DNA of 32,000 nt from Trichodesmium erythraeum IMS101 (GTDB lineage Bacteria; Cyanobacteriota; Cyanobacteriia; Cyanobacteriales; Microcoleaceae). The translations under genes were made by a program, and so were the position numbers. Within the stretch, counting starts at the first letter, position 1, and every line of letters starts with the position of its first letter. The notes under the pieces are model-generated. The model searched no databases. It had not been told where the DNA came from and was given only the letters and a program-made list of their open reading frames with translations. The stretch is taken from assembly GCF_000014265.1 (NCBI RefSeq), contig NC_008312.1, positions 3,540,001 through 3,572,000 of the forward strand, in the 5' to 3' direction. Shown piece by piece: positions 8,805 through 28,685 of this stretch.

Positions 8805-9170
8805 GTTAGTTATCTCCTCATCACAAAATAGCTTCAACAGGGTAAAGAAAAATACTTTATTAATCTTAACTTAGCTTATAGTTTACTGTACTTACTTTCT
8901 GGAATAATTGGCTAATATAGCTGTGATTTATCTCTTTCTTGGGCCTAGTTTTTCTGACAACCTCCATTTCTATCAATTTGAGTTTTTGTTTTAGTAAAAA
9001 TACTTAATAATGGAATTATATATCAATCTATTGACATTTTTTTAATTATCAAACAGTTAAGCTTTAGTTTTATTAGTAATTAGCACTTTTAGCATATCTT
9101 CTTTTTTTGTCCATTTTATAAGATATATCCTCATTTAGCACATAATGGCCAATCATTACCATCCTGAACT

Positions 9171-11342
9171 TTAGTTATTGTCAGTAAATTTTGGTGTAGA
9201 TACCAAAGGTTTATCTCTCTCATCCGTTAAAATCCTTGATTTTTCTGCCCTCGACTCCTGATATGGGTCTGAAGGTAGAGTCCGATCTTCTACAGGCTCA
9301 GAAAGGTTAAGCCAACTTTGCCAAATACTAATTTGACTCTGAGCTGAATTATAAGCTAGAGTACTCGTCGGAATTTTCCTAGCAATTGAGATGGCTCGTG
9401 GCACATCTTGCTTCACAACCTCCATAGCAATTAACAATATTTGTTGACTCCATTGATTAATCAATTGAGAAGCTTCTAATTGCCTAGAACTAGAAGTTGG
9501 TACTTGTTGTGCTAAACCAATTGCTGTAACATAAGCATCTGTTGTTGCTGTTTGCGCTACTTGACGAGCACTTTCTAATTTAATTTTGGTATCTTGTTGA
9601 GCTTGCCACTGTTGAATTTTAGCTCTGGCTTGATTATAGAGGATTCTACCTGATTTGATTTCTTGAGCTTTGGTAATTGCCTGTTCTATCTTACCTGAAG
9701 ACGCTAGAAGTTCTGCTTGAGCAATAATTGGTTGGTCTTGAAAACGTTCAACTTGTTCTGTCCACCTATTAATTTGACTTTGAGCTTCCTGATATAGAGT
9801 TCTACCTCTACCAATTTGACTGGCTTCAGAAATTGCTGCTTGTAGAGAACTCATATCACCAAAGCTTGCTAATTTTTTGGCTTTCTCCAAAAAAGGCTGA
9901 TCCTCTTGTCTCTGTAGTTCTTTACTCCAAGCTTTTATCAAAGTAGTTGCTTCTTTTCCACGAGGGTTATAGGGAGAAATAGTCTGAACTTTAGCGATCG
10001 CTGCTTTAAAATCACTAATTCCTCTAGGTAAGGCTAGTTTTTTTCCTTCTTCAATAATAGTCACATCTGCTATTTCTTGTTCCCAAAGACTAATTAACTC
10101 TTGAGCTTTGCTGTAAAAAGGTCGTTCAGCCTTAAGTCTTTTTACTTGAGCAATAGCATCTTTATATCCTGCTATTGTAGATAAATTAGCTGGGGAATGG
10201 GCACGAGCTAAAACTTCTATATCTTCTACTAATTCCAGTAAGGCATCATTTTTGGGAACCTTATTGACATCTTCAAGTGCCTCTTGCCAATTTCCTGCGT
10301 TTAATTTGACTAAAGCTATATCTATTACTTTTTTTCCCAAATTTACTATTAACTTTTTAGCTTTCTGATAGAGATAGCTATTTTCTTCAATTTCTTGAGC
10401 TTGTTTAATCCCATTAGTCAGATTATTTAGTCCACCTGCTTCTCCAAGTTCTCGTACTTCTTCTAATTTAGCACCCTCTTTACGAGTTTTTTTAATATCA
10501 TTAATTAATTTCTGATATTTTTTTGTTCCCCAGTGAACATTTGGCACTGATAATAAACGAGAAGCTTCTATTGAAGCTTGATGCCATTCTTCTTCACGCA
10601 AATATTCTTGAGTCTGCTGGTAATTTCCTTCCGCTTGATTCCAAGTTTTTTGCCACTCTTGAATCTGTTGTTCTACCAGTGAGTAAGCTGGCACTTTCTG
10701 GGGGACTCTTTCAGCAATGGTAATAGCTTCTTCTAATTTTCCATCTTGAAAAGCTAAATCTCCCAAGGACAATATTTTTTTTGACCACATTTCAATATAA
10801 CTATCTACTTGTGGACGCATTGGATGCTCATTGGATAAAACATCTACTAAATCAATTGCTTTAAGCAAACTATCAAGAGTTGGAGAAGTCGCTAACAACT
10901 GGGCACAATAAAGACGTTTACTAGCAGATGCAGTACGCCAGTAAGTTGACTCACAATCTTCATTATAGGGTAACTTCAATAAAGCTGAGATAGCTGTTAT
11001 GCTAGCTCCAGTCGGAACTATCACCAGTAGTAGTATCAATAAAGGCCCATAGATAGACCCTAGATTGTTTGTAGATTTCCCTTTTTTTGACTCAGTTTTT
11101 TTGATTTGGGAAACTGATTTTTTTTGTTGATTGGAGTATTTTGCAGGAGATTTGTAAGTCTTGATCTGACTACCATTTGCTCTAATTTCCTGCAGCCTTT
11201 CTTGCCGGTTTTTCCGAGGTTCAGACAATTGCCATTGAGTTTCGTCTCTTGGCTTCATCTGTGATAGTATCCGGCCTTGGCCTATAGTTTTGTGCTTTTC
11301 ATTCATATATGCTTTATCCTGAGCAGCAAGCAATGAATACAT
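9171..11342 (-). CDS. Membrane-anchored alpha-helical repeat protein, function unknown
   Basis: 723 aa. It has a basic, low-complexity N-terminus, one TM helix (GPLLILLLVIVPTGASITAISALL), and then at least eight copies of a roughly 55-60 aa unit. Each unit ends in an (A/E)xxxIxxWxxx motif: YIEMWSKKI, QIQEWQKTW, ELISLWEQEI, TLIKAWSKEL, SQINRWTEQV, AKIQQWQAQQ, QLINQWSQQI, SQISIWQSWL. The motif is usually preceded by AIxxAxxI....LYxxA. Confidence 0.6.
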   Translation of the reverse strand: MYSLLAAQDKAYMNEKHKTIGQGRILSQMKPRDETQWQLSEPRKNRQERLQEIRANGSQIKTYKSPAKYSNQQKKSVSQIKKTESKKGKSTNNLGSIYGPLLILLLVIVPTGASITAISALLKLPYNEDCESTYWRTASASKRLYCAQLLATSPTLDSLLKAIDLVDVLSNEHPMRPQVDSYIEMWSKKILSLGDLAFQDGKLEEAITIAERVPQKVPAYSLVEQQIQEWQKTWNQAEGNYQQTQEYLREEEWHQASIEASRLLSVPNVHWGTKKYQKLINDIKKTRKEGAKLEEVRELGEAGGLNNLTNGIKQAQEIEENSYLYQKAKKLIVNLGKKVIDIALVKLNAGNWQEALEDVNKVPKNDALLELVEDIEVLARAHSPANLSTIAGYKDAIAQVKRLKAERPFYSKAQELISLWEQEIADVTIIEEGKKLALPRGISDFKAAIAKVQTISPYNPRGKEATTLIKAWSKELQRQEDQPFLEKAKKLASFGDMSSLQAAISEASQIGRGRTLYQEAQSQINRWTEQVERFQDQPIIAQAELLASSGKIEQAITKAQEIKSGRILYNQARAKIQQWQAQQDTKIKLESARQVAQTATTDAYVTAIGLAQQVPTSSSRQLEASQLINQWSQQILLIAMEVVKQDVPRAISIARKIPTSTLAYNSAQSQISIWQSWLNLSEPVEDRTLPSDPYQESRAEKSRILTDERDKPLVSTPKFTDNN

Positions 11343-21640: not shown

Positions 21641-22236
21641 ATGTTTTATAGTAGATTTACCCTAGAAGAAGTTCTGGCAAATTTTAATCTCAACTTGGTC
21701 GAAAAATTGGGTAAATTTAATCAACTACCAGAAGTTTATCCCAGTAAATTTATTCAAGAAGCTTTAGAATATTATTTACCATTAGCAGTAGCGATCGCTT
21801 CGGAAAAAGCTTGTTCAGAATTTATTATTGCGCCGATATTAGCAGAATTAAAAAAATATCTAATAACCAGATAAGTTTATTTTCAGGGATTGAGTTTAAT
21901 GTTAATCCAGATTTAGGATTAAATGTTTTTTGTGACTTTATTATCAGTTTATCAACTCAGCAAATAGTTCTCAAAGCACCAGTAATAACTTTAGTAGAAG
22001 CTAAAAACGATAACCTGAGAAATGGTTTAGCTCAATGTATGGCAGAAATGCTTGCTGCTCAAATTTTTAATCAAAGCAAAGGCAAAGAAATTCCCAAGAT
22101 TTATGGAGTTATTACTACTGGTAATGCTTGGCAATTTATAGAGTTAGAATCTAAAACAATAGTTATAGATTTAGAGGAATATTCTGTTTATAACTTACCG
22201 AATATTTTAGGAATATTAACCAGTTTTGTTTGTTAG
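21641..22236 (+). pseudogene. Conserved cyanobacterial hypothetical protein with a PD-(D/E)xK-like core, split by a frameshift in an A7 run
   Basis: ORF 21641-21874 (...SEKACSEFIIAPILAELKK) and ORF 21811-22236 (ISNNQISLFSGIEFNVNPDLGLNVFCDFIISLS...VITLVEAKNDNLRNGLAQCMAEMLAAQIFN...YGVITTGNAWQFIEL) together form one protein of a family I recall as widespread in cyanobacteria. The D...EAK motif resembles a PD-(D/E)xK nuclease core. The frames switch by -1 at the run AAAAAAA (21850-21856). One additional A would restore a single ORF. Confidence 0.65.
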
Positions 22237-22882: not shown

Positions 22883-24298
22883 CTAACCGCAAGAATGTAG
22901 AGACAAATGGGAATTTGCTCCTACTTCATTGGATAAAAAATATAGTTTCAGCAAAGGTAAAAGAATAAAATTGTTTTCTTGTTTTTCTATTAGAGAACGT
23001 CGCTGCAAAGATTTAATTATGTTCAATAAATCTGAAAGTGGTATTTGTAAATTATCTAATAAAGTTGAAATAGCCACTGCTTCAGTTTTAGTTGCTAAGT
23101 GAGAGATTATTTGTTTTTCTAACTCTGATAAACGGGCAAACTGCTGATGTAATAATTCTTTGATATCTGCATCTAAAAATAGGGAGTCATATTGAAATAA
23201 TTCTGAGACGCTCCCAGCAAATAAATCATTAATAGTAGTAGCAATTATATTTAACCAAGTCGGGTTGCCTTGATAAAAATTAATTAGTTTTTGCCCTTGA
23301 GCGTCTACTTCTAGATCTTGGTCTTTGAGAATTTTTATAGCTGCTTCCTCATCTAAACCTTTCAGATGTAATGAGCGAACAGATGTATTTTTACCACTGC
23401 TAATTTCTCTAAGTTTTTCTCTACTAATAATTAAGCAACAACTCTGATGAGAGAGTTCGCCAATAAGTTGGAAAAATTGACTGTAGTTTTCATATTCTGG
23501 CAGGTAATGACTTGCTAGTTTCCTACTGCTAAATATTGTTTGGATGTCATCTAGTATTATCAGGCAACGGTGCTTTCTCAAATTTTCTAGAAGATAGGAA
23601 TTTCCTGAAGTTTCAATAGTCAATTTTTGGTTAGAAATAAATTTAATGAGGTTAGTTTGAATTGTTTTAAGAGGTGGGGAGTCTCGCAGACTTTGCCAAA
23701 TTATATAGTCGAACTTATTTTGAATATTTTTGATTAGTTGGAGAGCTAATGCTGTTTTGCCAATACCAATTATTCCATGGAGAATTACTAATTTTTTTTG
23801 TTCTTGGAGAATCCATTTTTTCAGAGTTTTTATTTCCTGATTTCGACCATAGAATTTTTTATAGTCTGGTGCATCTGATAGGTTTATTTTTGGTCGAGGA
23901 ATAGTCTGGCATTTGTTAATATTTGGCTGAGTCAAATTTTCAGGTTTTATAGTTTCTGAAGAAGGGGAAGTTTCCGGGCAAAAATTTATATTTTTAATTC
24001 CTATAAAGTCTTTTTCTATCTTTGGAGATGAAACTATTGAAAACTGCCATCTTTCAAATGTGGTACGTAGATTAGATTTATTTACTTGTTCTCCAAAAGT
24101 ATCTGAAAAAGTTTTCCATAATTCTGAAGCAACATCCCTGACATGACCGTTAGTGCATTGACATTCTTGAGCTATTTCTGAATATTTTTTACCTTGAAAA
24201 ACACCCTTTAATATAGCTTGTTGTAGGTCTTCTAAATGTTTTCCTGTTTTGTTAAAGATGAGATGGTCAGCTAAATTCAATATTTCTTGGATATCCAT
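22883..24298 (-). CDS. STAND-type P-loop NTPase (NB-ARC-like) with an N-terminal HTH-like domain and no C-terminal repeat sensor
   Basis: 471 aa. The N-terminal roughly 85 aa (LEDLQQAILKGVFQGKKYSEIAQECQCTNGHVRDVASELWKTFSDTFGEQVNKSNLRTTFERW) look like the HTH-type module found at the N-terminus of many cyanobacterial NACHT/NB-ARC-WD40 proteins. It has Walker A GIIGIGKTALA, Walker B CLIILDDIQ, an NB-ARC-like GNPTWLNIIA (GxPLAL-type) motif and a C-terminal winged-helix-like segment. No WD40, TPR or other sensor array follows. Confidence 0.75.
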   Translation of the reverse strand: MDIQEILNLADHLIFNKTGKHLEDLQQAILKGVFQGKKYSEIAQECQCTNGHVRDVASELWKTFSDTFGEQVNKSNLRTTFERWQFSIVSSPKIEKDFIGIKNINFCPETSPSSETIKPENLTQPNINKCQTIPRPKINLSDAPDYKKFYGRNQEIKTLKKWILQEQKKLVILHGIIGIGKTALALQLIKNIQNKFDYIIWQSLRDSPPLKTIQTNLIKFISNQKLTIETSGNSYLLENLRKHRCLIILDDIQTIFSSRKLASHYLPEYENYSQFFQLIGELSHQSCCLIISREKLREISSGKNTSVRSLHLKGLDEEAAIKILKDQDLEVDAQGQKLINFYQGNPTWLNIIATTINDLFAGSVSELFQYDSLFLDADIKELLHQQFARLSELEKQIISHLATKTEAVAISTLLDNLQIPLSDLLNIIKSLQRRSLIEKQENNFILLPLLKLYFLSNEVGANSHLSLHSCG

Positions 24299-24499: not shown

Positions 24500-25069
24500 A
24501 TGAAAGAAAGGGAATTATCTCGCTTATTAAAAAAACCATTCTATACAGTTATAAAGTATCTACACCAAAAAGATTTACCAAAAGAAGTAAAAAATGCTTT
24601 GAACGATATTTTTAATGTTTTAGAAATTGAACCAGACAATGATATTTCTAACAGACAGGAAGTTTATCAAAGCATTGCCAAATTTCTGCAAAAAAACTTG
24701 CCTCAACCAAGATCTGAACCTTTAAGAATTACCCAATGTTTAAGAATTACCTATAAACTTTGTAGAGAGTTTGACGAACAATTAGTAAAAGAAGGATCAG
24801 AAATTAACCCGACACTTCTCGAAGCCGCAAAAGCATTAATTTTAACTATTAAAGTAAATTATGAACCTAAAGTAAATTATGAACCTGAATTACTCAAAGT
24901 TCAAACTTATAATCGTCAAATAGAAATTTATTACATTAAAGAAAACAAACCAATAGTAACAAGAATAGAACAGGAATTAGATAGAGATAGTTTACCTGAA
25001 GATGTACGTTCAGAGTGGTTACGCGAGGGTGAAAAAAAATTAACTTTTAAACTTTATCCAAAGGAGTAA
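24500..25069 (+). CDS. Small-protein family member 1 (soluble, 189 aa), function unknown
   Basis: First gene of the operon, with no TM helix. The C-terminal segment IVTRIEQELDRDSLPEDVRSEWLREGEKKLTF carries the motif shared with the next two genes. It also contains an in-frame 18-bp tandem duplication (KVNYEP x2). Confidence 0.6.
   Translation: MKERELSRLLKKPFYTVIKYLHQKDLPKEVKNALNDIFNVLEIEPDNDISNRQEVYQSIAKFLQKNLPQPRSEPLRITQCLRITYKLCREFDEQLVKEGSEINPTLLEAAKALILTIKVNYEPKVNYEPELLKVQTYNRQIEIYYIKENKPIVTRIEQELDRDSLPEDVRSEWLREGEKKLTFKLYPKE
24851..24886 (+). repeat. Perfect in-frame 18-bp tandem duplication (AAAGTAAATTATGAACCT x2)
   Basis: Read directly; it encodes KVNYEPKVNYEP inside family member 1. 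Confidence 0.9.
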
Positions 25070-25073
25070 AATT

Positions 25074-25556
25074 ATGCCAATTCCACTATTTATGTGGGCT
25101 ATAGCAGGTGCTTTAGGGGTTTCAGCAACTTTCGCATTAATATTTTGGGATCAAATTTTAGGCTGGGCAGAAGATAGTCTTTTTCCTTGGATTAAAAATA
25201 ATATTCCTTCAATTGAAAGTGCAGTAAGAAAAGCATTTAGTGCTTTAGATAATCAAGCTGTTGATACCCGTAAGATCATTCGCAAAGCCTGGAAAAAGTT
25301 GCGTAAATTTTTGTTAAAGCAAGTAGTAACACTAGAAAGAAAGTCATCAAACAAATGGATAAGAAGAGTTACATCTTGGGTAATTAAAGTTCTCGAGTCT
25401 GGTGAAAAAGTTCCTGTAAAAGTAGAGACAGAAGAGAAAGTTAATTGGGATGAATTACCTGAAGATGTGCGTAAAGAATTTCTCAGCAAAGGAAAAAGTG
25501 AAAGTGAAATTGATGTAACAAAAAATCGCGATGACGAAATGGATATGTCTGCTTAG
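25074..25556 (+). CDS. Small-protein family member 2 (one N-terminal TM helix, 160 aa), function unknown
   Basis: It starts 4 nt after the previous stop, with AAGGAG just upstream. It has the TM helix IPLFMWAIAGALGVSATFALIFW and the C-terminal motif VKVETEEKVNWDELPEDVRKEFLSKGKSE. Confidence 0.65.
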   Translation: MPIPLFMWAIAGALGVSATFALIFWDQILGWAEDSLFPWIKNNIPSIESAVRKAFSALDNQAVDTRKIIRKAWKKLRKFLLKQVVTLERKSSNKWIRRVTSWVIKVLESGEKVPVKVETEEKVNWDELPEDVRKEFLSKGKSESEIDVTKNRDDEMDMSA

Positions 25557-25606
25557 TTAACTAGTATGTTTTGCTCAAAAAAATTAAGTATTTAGGGTAA
25601 AAAAAA

Positions 25607-26053
25607 ATGAATCAAATCAAAATTGACTGGCTTGCCATTTCTATTATTGCAGTTATAGGAGTAGGTATAGGTATCTATTTTTTAACTAAACAAAGTGAAG
25701 CAGAAAATCGCAGGAATATTGATAGCTGGTTTGAGGAAAAATTATCTATATCATTAGCAGAAAAATTAGGCATACCCAGTCAAGAAATATTACAAACTAT
25801 TCGGGGTATAGCAAATCCTAAAATAATTGCTAGGATTAACGAAATAGTTGATTATGCTAGACTAACTTTTACTAAATTATCATCTTTTAATGATATAGAA
25901 ATTCGTCTAAATTTAGATTACAAAAACGGTACATATTTTTCCGTTGCTAGTAGTTGGAAATGGGATGAACTACCAGAAACAATTAGGTCAGAATTTCTCA
26001 GAAGTGGTAGTAATATTGTGACTCGTCCCTGGAATTTTCCCTGGGATAACTAA
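25607..26053 (+). CDS. Small-protein family member 3 (one N-terminal TM helix, 148 aa), function unknown
   Basis: It has the TM helix WLAISIIAVIGVGIGIYFL and the C-terminal motif YFSVASSWKWDELPETIRSEFLRSGSNI. Confidence 0.65.
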   Translation: MNQIKIDWLAISIIAVIGVGIGIYFLTKQSEAENRRNIDSWFEEKLSISLAEKLGIPSQEILQTIRGIANPKIIARINEIVDYARLTFTKLSSFNDIEIRLNLDYKNGTYFSVASSWKWDELPETIRSEFLRSGSNIVTRPWNFPWDN

Positions 26054-26075: not shown

Positions 26076-26405
26076 ATGCGTTGGTTAGTCGCAGTAGGTA
26101 TGTTAGTAGCGGCAGCTGTAGGAACATTAATTGTTGTTAAATTATGGGATGATATACGAGAAATAGTTGCTAAATGGTTACGTCAACAAGGTTTGGCAAA
26201 AAGTGATTTAATGGATGCTTGGGTTAAACTAGATTCAATGGTTGGAACTGTGCGTTCTAGAATCTTTATTAAAACTGAAAAAACAGGGAAAACTATCATA
26301 TCAGAAACTGAATATAATATGAGTGAAATAGATGATGAAGATGTTATAAAGGAACTAGAAAAACAAGGATATTATAAGCGCAAAATTATGGATTTACTTG
26401 ACTAA
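26076..26405 (+). CDS. Small-protein family member 4 (one N-terminal TM helix, 109 aa; divergent), function unknown
   Basis: AGGAG lies 8 nt upstream. It has the TM helix WLVAVGMLVAAAVGTLIVVKLW. The C-terminal part IFIKTEKTGKTIISETEYNMSEIDDEDVIKELEKQG aligns by eye with member 2 (VKVETEEKVNWDELPEDVRKEFLSKG), but the motif is weaker. Confidence 0.55.
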   Translation: MRWLVAVGMLVAAAVGTLIVVKLWDDIREIVAKWLRQQGLAKSDLMDAWVKLDSMVGTVRSRIFIKTEKTGKTIISETEYNMSEIDDEDVIKELEKQGYYKRKIMDLLD

Positions 26406-27193
26406 AAATAAATTAATCTGTAGCCAGGAAAAAAATTTAATAGTCTAAACTTTTAACTAACTACTTAATTTTTCAATATTTAGCAAATTATTATAAGGAG
26501 AATTAATTTATGCCTACAGGATGGGAAAGACAAAAAAGTACAAATACAAAAACAGAGGAAATAAAAACTACAAATATTAACAAACCTCCTCAACAAACTC
26601 CCACCAATAATTCCTCTGATAAAACAACTGAAATAAACAGAATGGAAATGTTTATCCCAGAAGAACCTCAGAGAAGTTTAGACGATCTAATAGTTCCCTC
26701 AACCGTCAAAAATAGAATTGATACAGCACTGAATAGAATTAAATATCACGATATTTTATATTACCAATGGAACTTAAAAAGTATTGACCCCAGAGGTAAA
26801 CGTACCGCAATTAATTTATTTGGGTTACCAGGTACAGGTAAAACTTTTTGTGCAGAAGCGATCGCTCACATTTTAAAGAAAAAAATCATCAAAGTTAACT
26901 ACGCAGAAATTGAGTCTAAATATGTAGGTGAAACCCCAAAAAACATTACCGCAGCTTTTAAAAAAGCCCAAGAAACTGACTCAGTTTTATTCTTTGATGA
27001 AGCTGACTCTATCTTAGGAAAAAGATTAACTAATGTCACCCAAAGTTCCGATCATGGAGTTAATGTTAGTCGTTCCGTAATGTTACTTCAACTAGACAAA
27101 TTTGATGGAGTCGTAATTTTTGCCACGAACCTCGCCAAAAACTATGATGGAGCATTTGTCCGTCGCATTTTAGCACACATTGAATTTGAATTA

Positions 27194-28139
27194 TAGCAAT
27201 CGAAGCAAAGGTTAGGACGTTAACTTAACAGCATAATCAACTCTCAATGCGAAAATTTTCTATTGTTCCTTCTGACTTTCTGACTCGATTTTTAATTGGA
27301 AACCAATAATGTTCTATTTCATTTAAGTCAGGAGAATATGGTGGTAAATATTCAAGCTCACAATTCACTGATTCTATTAATTCTCTAACTTTTTGGGATT
27401 TATGAAAACTTGCATTGTCTAATATTACTAATTGTCCTGTTTTTAATTGTGGCAACAATTTTTCTCTCAACCATTTTTCAAAAACTACACGGTTACAAGA
27501 GCCTTCAAATGTTAATGGAGCAACTAATTTTCCTTCACACAAACCACTTACAATACTTACCCTTAGACTTCTTTTTCCTGACTTTAAATCGTAATATCTT
27601 TTTCCCAATTCATTCCATCCATAACCATAATCTTCTCTATTATCCATACCTGATTCATCTATATACACTAGCTGTTCCGGCCTTTTATCGCGAATTTTGG
27701 CCAGAAATTTCTTTCTTTTGTCTTCATCTCTTTCTCTGTAACCGTAAGTTTTTTTTTCTTGTATAACCAATTTTTTTTAAGGCTTTACTTATAGTGCGAT
27801 CGCTTACCTTATCTGGCCATTCATCAGCCATTTCTTTTTGAGTTTTACTGCCATTAATCTGGGCAAATTTTCTGAATTGTTCTAAGTCTGGTATTTTGGG
27901 ATTATATCCTTTTTGATAACCTGTTTTTGCTTTTATATCCCCAGTTTCTCTTCTTCTATGTAACCAAGTATTGATGGTATTACGACTAATCTTAAATATA
28001 GAACTTACTTGAGTTTTACTCATCCCACCATCAATGGCCTTAATAACTTTTTGTCTTAAGTCATAGCTATAAGGAGAAGGCATAATCTTTCCTAGATAAT
28101 TTTTCGAGCATTATGTCCTAATCTTTGCTTCGACTGCTA
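27194..28139 (-). mobile_element. IS630-family (Tc1/mariner superfamily) insertion sequence, 946 bp
   Basis: Imperfect terminal inverted repeats TAGCAATCGAAGCAAAGGTTAGGAC (27194-27218) and the reverse complement of 28115-28139, TAGCAGTCGAAGCAAAGATTAGGAC (23/25 match). The element is flanked by TA at 27192-27193 and 28140-28141, the target duplication expected for IS630. It encodes the transposase listed below. Confidence 0.9.
27237..28083 (-). CDS. IS630-family DDE transposase in two overlapping frames (orfA 27724-28083, orfB 27237-27770)
   Basis: orfA holds the HTH domains (...SRNTINTWLHRRRETGD...). orfB holds the catalytic residues in VYIDESG, ILDNASFHK and LPPYSPDLNEIEHYW. orfB is in the +1 frame relative to orfA. 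The overlap contains an A9 run on the coding strand (T-run 27749-27757). Losing one A gives the fusion ...IGYTRKKTYGYRERDE... Confidence 0.88.
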
Positions 28140-28685
28140 TACCAGACAAAGAATGTCGCATGAAATTATGGGAACATTTACTGCCAAAAGAAATACCAAC
28201 TACAGAAGATATTAATCTAGAATTGTTAGCAAACGAATCTGAAAACCTCGCTGGAGGTGATATTTTAAATGTTGTAATTTCCGCAGCAAGTCGAGCAGTT
28301 ATCAGAGAAGCAAAAGCTCAAAAAGTTTCCCTTTTTGACTTAGCTGAAGAAATAAAATTTGTGCGAGAAGCAAAGACAAAAATTGGTTCTCCTCACCATC
28401 AAACTAACCCACAAAAAGCCAAAGTTAAAGAGACAATAATAAATCCAGATGATTTATCTCCAGAACTTCGCGATCGCTACAATGAAAACATTTCAAAAAT
28501 AGATAAATCTGAGTCAGATTTTAACAACTAAATAATATACATAAATTTTCATTTTAGCATACAAAAATAGGGAAGTTTCATAGAACATCCCTACAAAATT
28601 TTAGTTGTAAAAATATGATTAATTATTATTAATAAAACATCAAATTTAAAATCCCAGAAAATATTACTTAAAACAAAACCTAAAC

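Follow-up and report, generated by a model that had tools for sequence, protein, structure and literature searches.

What do neighbouring small proteins gain from ending in nearly the same peptide? This question is raised by a 32,000-nucleotide (nt) stretch of Trichodesmium erythraeum IMS101 (contig NC_008312.1, positions 3,540,001 to 3,572,000; hereafter the window), in which three consecutive proteins, here called m1, m2 (Tery_2294) and m3 (Tery_2295), have the peptide W-D-E-L-P-x-D-V-R-x-E-F-L-R-x-G in common, and a fourth, m4 (Tery_2296), carries a degenerate copy of it. Tery_2294, Tery_2295 and Tery_2296 are annotated as 'hypothetical protein', and an AAA+ ATPase gene lies directly downstream. 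I found that the five genes form a recurrent cassette, a dedicated AAA+ whose partner proteins belong to a protein family not described before. On balance, the domain to which the peptide belongs probably serves as a hetero-oligomerisation or docking element, which would join the paralogues and the ATPase in one membrane-attached complex that the ATPase remodels.

The motif is part of a domain shared by four paralogues

The six-frame translation of the window contains exactly three matches to the strict pattern [DE]x[LIVM]Pxx[VIL]Rxx[FWY], and these are the copies in m1, m2 and m3. Pairwise BLASTP linked m2 with m3 (E=5e-6) and m1 with m2 (E=9e-6) and gave a weak signal for m4; at the level of sequence, the similarity of the motif among m1-m3 is beyond chance. 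A preliminary description of this DNA had quoted four such peptides, all of which are present as quoted with coordinates that fall within the spans mapped here (Table 1). It had placed the motif 15-25 residues from the C-termini, which needs correcting, as the motif ends 9-17 residues before the C-termini of m1-m4. It had also not recognised the motif as a named one, and scans of Pfam, NCBIfam, PADLOC and PHROGs together with a profile search of PDB sequences agree in returning no named or curated motif. Literature searches on the motif strings, the locus tags Tery_2292-2297 and descriptive terms found nothing relevant.

Comparing family alignments that included orthologues from other phyla with hhalign extended the homology well beyond the motif, to 112 columns for m1/m2 (97.8%, E=1e-12), 122 for m1/m3 (97%, E=1e-10), 126 for m2/m3 (94.8%, E=5e-8) and 102 for m2/m4 (87%, E=3.8e-6), and by this measure m1-m4 are paralogues over most of their length. 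The similarity first noticed from the sequence alone thus withstood profile comparison, with E-values of 1e-12 to 3.8e-6 across the paralogue pairs. The m2/m4 alignment sets the m4 peptide 'YNMSEIDDEDVIKELEKQG' onto 'VNWDEL-PEDVRKEFLSKG' of m2, exactly as had been proposed for the weak fourth member. The membership of m4 rests on this full-length alignment, because a hidden Markov model (HMM) of the motif from m1-m3 misses the C-terminal copy in m4. When shallow, cyanobacteria-only alignments were used, hhalign linked neither m4 nor the ATPase tail described below, and both links were obtained only once cross-phylum sequences had joined the alignments. The arginine of the m4 motif is retained in some orthologues, for instance as 'IEDPEVRAEL' in the copy from Anaeromyxobacteraceae. 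Separately, a segment of m4 beside the membrane helix (residues 24-39, window 26145-26192, 'WDDIREIVAKWLRQQG') is also motif-like (BLASTP to the m2 motif, E=0.09) and by eye is among the best-kept stretches in the eight m4 orthologues collected.

The proteins had been described as strongly diverged outside the motif. This holds insofar as the motif is the best-kept stretch between the paralogues, but not as a statement about the rest of the proteins, since homology spans 100-126 columns; because of this coverage, the motif is the most strongly retained stretch of a common domain and not an isolated tag. Within m2 orthologues, W25, W31, P38 and W39 are as invariant as the motif itself. As far as the alignments go, the distinction of the motif is its conservation between paralogues, with other regions matching it within each orthologous family.

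An AlphaFold2 model of m2, calculated from an alignment of 20 orthologues (predicted local distance difference test, pLDDT, 73), begins with the N-terminal helix and another long helix, continues with three long strands in antiparallel arrangement (residues 80-91, 94-106 and 112-124), the motif helix (130-139) and a short strand (143-147), and closes with a terminal helix. In this model the motif is the helix of a C-terminal beta-beta-beta-alpha-beta module of ~70 residues. The N-terminal hydrophobic segments of m2, m3 and m4 reach membrane-helix strength (KD19 hydropathy 1.99-2.52; 1.99 at residues 5-23 of m2), and the m1 maximum of 0.89 is below that level. None of m1-m4 scored above threshold in any curated family of Pfam, NCBIfam, PADLOC or PHROGs, where the best matches were unrelated families at E=0.0012-0.2. 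With the module as the query profile, a search of PDB sequences returned nothing significant (best E 0.27), and neither did Foldseek with the m2 model (best E 0.015 in the PDB and 0.022 among the viral models of BFVD). A sub-threshold match of m1 to EAP30/Vps36 (E=0.011) was not relied on. The first strand of the module in m1 contains a perfect 18-nt tandem duplication of 2.1 copies (window 24850-24886), read as 'KVNYEP KVNYEP', which is missing from the orthologues examined.

Searching the module profile against 1.84 billion cluster representatives yielded 252 proteins at E<=1e-3, nearly all of which measure 145-200 aa and carry the module C-terminally; this defines an unannotated family of ~250 clusters at 50% identity. 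Information content was calculated over ~150 module instances from representatives of 50%-identity clusters and peaks at L46, P47, V50 and R51 (3.3-4.2 bits); W43 and D44 precede this group, and an aromatic position 54, L55, R56 and G58 follow it. The proline is found in 146 of 148 instances and the arginine in 138. Outside the motif, nearly all positions stay at or below 2.9 bits, the exceptions being a low-coverage first column and D71. Several members rearrange the module: P0330 joins m1 and m2 in one polypeptide, P0274 and P0322 are tandem duplications of m3, and extra motif units occur in P0211, P0345 and an open reading frame (ORF) of Dapis (L005 8496-8885). In P0302, a distant m2 homologue, the membrane helix is replaced by a region resembling TRADD-like_N (E=1.7e-4; 21.8 bits against a cut-off of 23.7). 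P0301 was rejected as a member, being a eukaryotic Ig-repeat protein and a false positive from a repeated 'LPEDIRVEW', and for this reason the nine-residue core alone is not unique.

Some further variants were observed at the margins of the family. P0284, a metagenomic protein of 1104 aa (cluster member P0351, 1203 aa), consists of ~12 tandem units of two strands followed by 'LP[ED][ED]VRxxWLxxGAT', ends in a C-terminal hydrophobic anchor and has no Pfam match; either repetition of the same module or convergence may account for it. Okeania and Dapis contain extra truncated m2-like copies without the membrane helix (L004 3980-4872; L005 8496-8885; L002 8481-8675; L006 8461-8610), and one of these ORFs bears two motif units. 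In L002, two ORFs of 148 and 281 aa (8866-10150) without similarity to the cassette proteins lie between an m2 remnant and m3.

The same element ends the ATPase

The C-termini of the ATPase were examined in 116 full-length sequences among its best 120 orthologues. By eye, the large majority end in '..VKEtiv.P[DE]ELPPD[VA]RxRY' after a poorly conserved linker, and a loose regular expression caught 56 of the 116 tails; the ATPase from Anaeromyxobacteraceae ends in 'DVPEDVREAFEGRG', which contains the canonical motif 'VRVVEERELDPADVPEDVREAFEGRG'. A profile of the 116 tails matched the m1-m3 motif profile (hhalign 93.9%, E=1.5e-7) and m2 (89.5%, E=2e-6), and all five comparisons of tail and module gave one register. 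The m1-m3 motif HMM found its best match within the last 45 residues in 84 of the 120 best orthologues, with a median tail score of 2.5 bits and a top score of 20.1 against a maximum of 5.2 among 2,560 shuffled decoys. The AlphaFold2 model of the ATPase places a helix at residues 335-356, with pLDDT >90 at residues 331-350, behind a linker from the lid domain with pLDDT 59-72, and a profile search of PDB sequences found no solved chain that covers the tail past profile position ~303. Taken together, this is good evidence from sequence comparison, over a short segment, that the ATPase ends in a shortened strand-plus-helix form of the module.

One cassette in at least five bacterial phyla

Loci anchored on m2 were found in Nostoc, Okeania, a Trichodesmium metagenome-assembled genome, Dapis, Rivularia, Coleofasciculaceae and Pseudanabaena; in these loci m1 is followed by one or several copies of m2, by m3, in some cases by m4, and finally by the ATPase. 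An Anaeromyxobacteraceae genome encodes all five genes in that order, with small proteins of 181, 159, 120 and 113 aa ahead of an ATPase of 343 aa. Three to six small genes lie directly upstream of the ATPase in five of five ATPase-anchored loci (Melittangium, Desulfatirhabdium, Thermoanaerobaculia and two metagenomic contigs), as they do in all loci anchored on m2 or m3. The cassette thus ranges over Cyanobacteria, Myxococcota, Desulfobacterota, Thermoanaerobaculia and a Streptomyces plasmid, which makes at least five bacterial phyla. Orthologues from five phyla conserve the motif, a condition that the preliminary description had set for its idea. A thylakoid- or cyanobacteria-specific role was rejected because the cassette is present in Myxococcota, Desulfobacterota, Thermoanaerobaculia and Streptomyces.

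Reduced cassettes are carried by a Nostoc flagelliforme plasmid and a Streptomyces plasmid. The latter (Streptomyces sp. NBC_00467, L016 6484-11977) encodes m1, m2, an ATPase of 295 aa and a CHAT protein of 1197 aa, with a Shedu gene nearby; this ATPase ends without the C-terminal tail, and both the proline and the arginine conserved in the motif are missing from m1 and m2. With m2 as the query, tblastn found two matches in plasmids and none in phages, and many transposases surround the cassette loci. The five genes are one horizontally spread cassette with a patchy, mobile-looking distribution. Across all loci (2,746 six-frame ORFs), the module was found in cassette genes and ATPase tails only. 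In Nostoc sp. FACHB-973 (L001 11361-13462), the ATPase ORF continues into unrelated sequence and overlaps a convergent STAND gene; this gene may be frameshifted or decaying, given that the ORF overruns and the database calls no genes there.

The ATPase and its interruption in IMS101

By its domain, Walker, pore-loop and arginine features, the downstream ATPase is a classical-clade AAA+. Its orthologues are 51-91% identical to a Trichodesmium-type reference across phyla, and GPPGTGKT (Walker A), DEAD (Walker B), the K137-Y138-V139-G140 pore loop and the R218-R219 arginine fingers are invariant in 72 of them. Among solved sequences, the D2 domains of VAT, Cdc48 and p97 come closest (E=5e-52 to 1e-49), and Foldseek matched the AlphaFold2 model (pLDDT 87) to proteasome Rpt subunits, p97, katanin, Vps4 and FtsH, with E=5e-17 for Rpt subunits, p97 and katanin. 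Judged by these sequence features, the enzyme looks like an active translocating unfoldase. A Pfam scan detected just AAA and lid, with no N-terminal recognition domain, MIT-like or other, and residues 1-34, modelled without regular structure (pLDDT 43-51), contain only a conserved 'MPxxW' peptide. The clade is widespread and highly conserved, with 6,822 of the 8,000 candidates scored at E<=1e-60, and its current name is merely 'ATP-binding protein'.

The extreme N-terminus of the ATPase, 'MPxxW(K/E)(K/R)' (residues 1-7), is near-invariant, with M1 and W5 in >=90% of orthologues, and is followed by a disordered linker of ~30 residues. This peptide may be a second docking peptide.

The ATPase gene of IMS101 is split by an IS630-family element whose transposase is encoded by two ORFs that overlap (27237-27770 and 27724-28083), presumably the frameshift arrangement of IS630. 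In-silico excision of the element restores a 357-aa ATPase ORF, and the insertion appears recent because both gene halves are otherwise intact. Because the insertion interrupts the ATPase gene, the system is probably inactive in IMS101. The coordinates of all features are collected in Table 1.

Table 1. Features of the cassette and its surroundings, in window coordinates (position 1 is the first nucleotide of the window).
Feature	Nucleotides	Strand	Residues	Description or basis
m1	24500-25069	+	189 aa	Soluble; N-terminal helical region, no membrane segment; C-terminal beta/alpha module from ~nt 24833
m1 motif DRDSLPEDVRSEWLREGEKK	24980-25039	+	161-180	Mapped on ORF
m2 (Tery_2294)	25074-25556	+	160 aa	N-terminal membrane helix and C-terminal module
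m2 motif NWDELPEDVRKEFLSKGKSE	25443-25502	+	124-143	Mapped on ORF
m3 (Tery_2295)	25607-26053	+	148 aa	N-terminal membrane helix and C-terminal module
m3 motif KWDELPETIRSEFLRSGSNI	25958-26017	+	118-137	Mapped on ORF
m4 (Tery_2296)	26076-26405	+	109 aa	N-terminal membrane helix and shortened module
m4 degenerate motif SEIDDEDVIKELEKQG	26322-26369	+	83-98	ORF mapping and m2/m4 profile alignment
AAA+ ATPase, 5' part	26510-27193	+	1-228	Pfam AAA 92.6 bits (cut-off 21.2)
IS630-family element	27194-28139	-		946 bp; 27-nt inverted repeats (93%); TA target duplication 27192-27193, 28140-28141
AAA+ ATPase, 3' part	28142-28531	+		Lid domain, linker, C-terminal tail; Pfam AAA_lid_3 25.8 bits, just under cut-off 27.2
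AAA+ tail element VKETIINPDDLSPELRDRYNE	28424-28486	+		Strand and motif-like helix; tail alignment, profile match, AlphaFold2 model
STAND NTPase	22883-24298	-		N-terminal helix-turn-helix-like region, NB-ARC (44.9 bits), winged helix; no repeat domain; divergent transcription

Neighbouring genes and the STAND protein

The genes around the cassette vary between loci. A 2,261-aa CHAT-STAND protein lies beside the cassette in Thermoanaerobaculia, with a MoxR-vWA pair a few kb downstream; two other loci have CHAT proteases, Melittangium has a WYL regulator, and Nostoc a VapBC-like pair. Two unrelated loci contain dynamin-like genes at a distance of a few kb from the cassette, and a third contains a PspA/IM30 gene (L010 251-2842; L013 13142-13651; L019 10712-11482), which may be coincidence or a link to membrane remodelling. 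Beyond the STAND gene of the window, a small PD-(D/E)xK protein is encoded (21811-22236; PADLOC 'PD_DExK, CAS-associated', E=3.6e-44), and a gene 88% identical to it is located near the STAND gene in Dapis (L005 4356-4751).

The preliminary description had considered the STAND protein as a docking partner of the motif, in which case the small proteins would be effectors recruited by STAND. A STAND gene does adjoin the cassette in Trichodesmium, Okeania, Dapis and Nostoc, and both the giant CHAT-STAND protein of Thermoanaerobaculia and the adaptor-like region of P0302, just below the Pfam cut-off, would fit such a recruitment. The motif nevertheless persists in loci without any STAND gene, namely those of Rivularia and Pseudanabaena (in the stretch fetched), Anaeromyxobacteraceae, Melittangium, Desulfatirhabdium, L018, L019 and both plasmids. 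No motif match was found in the STAND protein of the window, a Pfam scan detected no adaptor domain in m1-m4 and none shared with that protein, and no STAND, CHAT or other neighbour among the ORFs translated bears the module. With the STAND gene missing from most cassettes and the module from every STAND and CHAT protein at these loci, docking to STAND is very unlikely, and the STAND protein is an optional, probably regulatory neighbour outside the conserved core.

Proposed role of the module and alternative explanations

In the assembly favoured here, the module would join the soluble m1 and the membrane-anchored m2, m3 and m4 as a hetero-oligomer, the six tails of an ATPase ring would dock to the paralogues via the shared helix to give one membrane-attached complex, and the ATPase, whose K-Y-V-G pore loop is intact, would act on this complex by remodelling or unfolding it. 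Co-assembly, remodelling by the ATPase and a biological role are what I infer from the sequences; co-assembly is supported by the fusions and tandem duplications, by the fact that the enzyme bears the element as well, and by the joint loss of tail and canonical motif in Streptomyces. Docking to the AAA+ protein or oligomerisation had been among the original suggestions, and this part gained ground: the cassette always ends with the ATPase, whose tail bears the same strand-plus-helix element, and such a role fits the fused and duplicated module genes. It remains in competition with purely structural conservation.

Several points weigh against this assembly. The similarity of the tail covers only ~30 columns, falls short of significance when the alignments are shallow, and exceeds the 99th percentile of shuffled decoys in just half of the tails. 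Since a C-terminal helix is also found in the katanin/Vps4 group of AAA+ proteins, that of the tail may be of unrelated origin. The joint loss of the tail and of the motif proline and arginine is known from a single locus. Moreover, the motif residues W, L, V, F and L make one side of the helix hydrophobic, and this side could simply pack against the module's own sheet, so that conservation could be structural only.

Structural conservation is accordingly the main rival: the four proteins would be tandem duplicates that keep the motif helix for the sake of their fold, and the likeness of the ATPase tail would be convergent or that of a generic C-terminal helix. The homology does span most of each small protein, the conserved W, L, V, F/W and L are spaced like a buried helical face, the motif helix directly follows the sheet in the m2 model, and short strings such as 'LPEDIRVEW' arise by chance in the unrelated Ig repeats of P0301. 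However, packing alone does not explain the near-invariant proline and arginine together with the acidic residues; the tail profile matches significantly in constant register, tail and canonical motif are lost together in Streptomyces, and motif units have been duplicated alone, without the rest of the protein (L004, L005, P0211, P0345). I consider this explanation possible, though rather unlikely. Still more doubtful, in my judgement, is that the helix is a recognition tag which marks m1-m4 as substrates of the ATPase in the manner of MIM and Vps4, with the tail copy as an autoinhibitory pseudo-substrate. The presence of several paralogues with a short C-terminal helix beside a classical AAA+ with an intact pore loop, the proximity of the motif to free C-termini, and the low-confidence linker that parts the tail copy from the lid domain would all suit a tag. 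The motif sits inside a folded module with another strand after it, though, and not on a free tail, and the Pfam scan and the model show no MIT-like or other N-terminal recognition domain on the ATPase that could bind a substrate tag.

To return to a docking and hetero-oligomerisation element, the STAND, CHAT, WYL and transposase neighbours and the plasmid locations suggest that the complex acts in conflict, defence or cell death. A more specific and tentative proposal, which I regard as doubtful, is a membrane-acting immune or programmed-cell-death module in which a Cdc48-like unfoldase, tethered by the docking helix to the paralogue hetero-oligomer, would hold these proteins in an inactive state or release them from it, under the control of STAND, CHAT or WYL sensors. 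Against a defence role stand the setting of several loci, including the window, among ordinary or housekeeping genes and the fact that PADLOC has no model for m1-m4; the argument for it is drawn from gene neighbourhood only. If the signal from CHAT, STAND and WYL genes, plasmids and insertion sequences does reflect function, the cassette is a candidate for a new defence or cell-death system in hosts that include bloom-forming and multicellular bacteria, among them Trichodesmium, whose programmed cell death is ecologically important. Irrespective of that function, a conserved operon pairs the small-protein family with a widespread and highly conserved AAA+ clade, and the near-invariant L-P-x-x-V-R together with the ATPase tail provides a handle on how an unfoldase finds its partners.

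Comparison with known systems

Among defence systems, IetAS gave the best PADLOC match of the ATPase (IetA, E=3e-28), and NCBIfam matched IteA at E=1.5e-18; the IteA score of 67 bits against a cut-off of 510 marks this as a generic resemblance only, and PADLOC found no IetS-like protease among the neighbours scanned. The conflict systems built on STAND, CHAT and TRADD-N proteins, described in two studies (Kaur et al., 2020, PMC7159879; Kaur et al., 2021, PMC8195603), share with the cassette the lineages of filamentous cyanobacteria, myxobacteria and actinomycetes and neighbours such as STAND, CHAT, MoxR-vWA and WYL genes. They differ in that the Pfam scan detected no adaptor domain shared by the STAND protein of the window and m1-m4 (a TRADD-like_N region just under the cut-off occurs in the distant m2 homologue P0302), and the regulatory ATPases described for them are MoxR-type, or FtsH with two ATPase domains. 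Term searches of both studies and of a PSP-system survey returned no mention of a cassette of such composition.

Cdc48, p97 and VAT are closer to the ATPase itself: apart from the proximity of their D2 domains, they have the same pore loop and arginine fingers and a flexible linker followed by a conserved C-terminal element. The enzyme of the cassette differs in being a single AAA module of ~350 aa with neither an N domain nor a D1 domain. Msp1/ATAD1 and FtsH are AAA+ machines that extract single-pass membrane proteins, and the analogy lies in a classical AAA+ paired with single-pass membrane proteins whose soluble part would face the ATPase, with FtsH among the Foldseek matches. The cassette enzyme differs in lacking a membrane anchor and a protease domain.

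ESCRT-III and Vps4 (CdvC) likewise combine small membrane-acting paralogues, whose short C-terminal helix is rich in acidic residues, leucine and arginine, with a classical-clade AAA+, and CdvC is the top NCBIfam match for the ATPase (E=1e-18), yet at 67 bits against a cut-off of 650. Instead of the Snf7/ESCRT-III fold, m1-m4 have a beta-sheet module (no Snf7 match at E<=1 in Pfam, and no solved relative of the m2 model in Foldseek); the ATPase has no N-terminal MIT domain in the Pfam scan or the AlphaFold2 model; and the motif of the cassette is also present on the ATPase itself. The spacing of the MIM1 consensus differs from that of the cassette motif as well. By analogy, the cassette resembles ESCRT-III/Vps4 in its logic and departs from it in its defining features, the Snf7 fold and the MIT domain, and if the more specific proposal of a membrane-acting immune or cell-death module is correct, it would represent a non-homologous bacterial counterpart of that logic.

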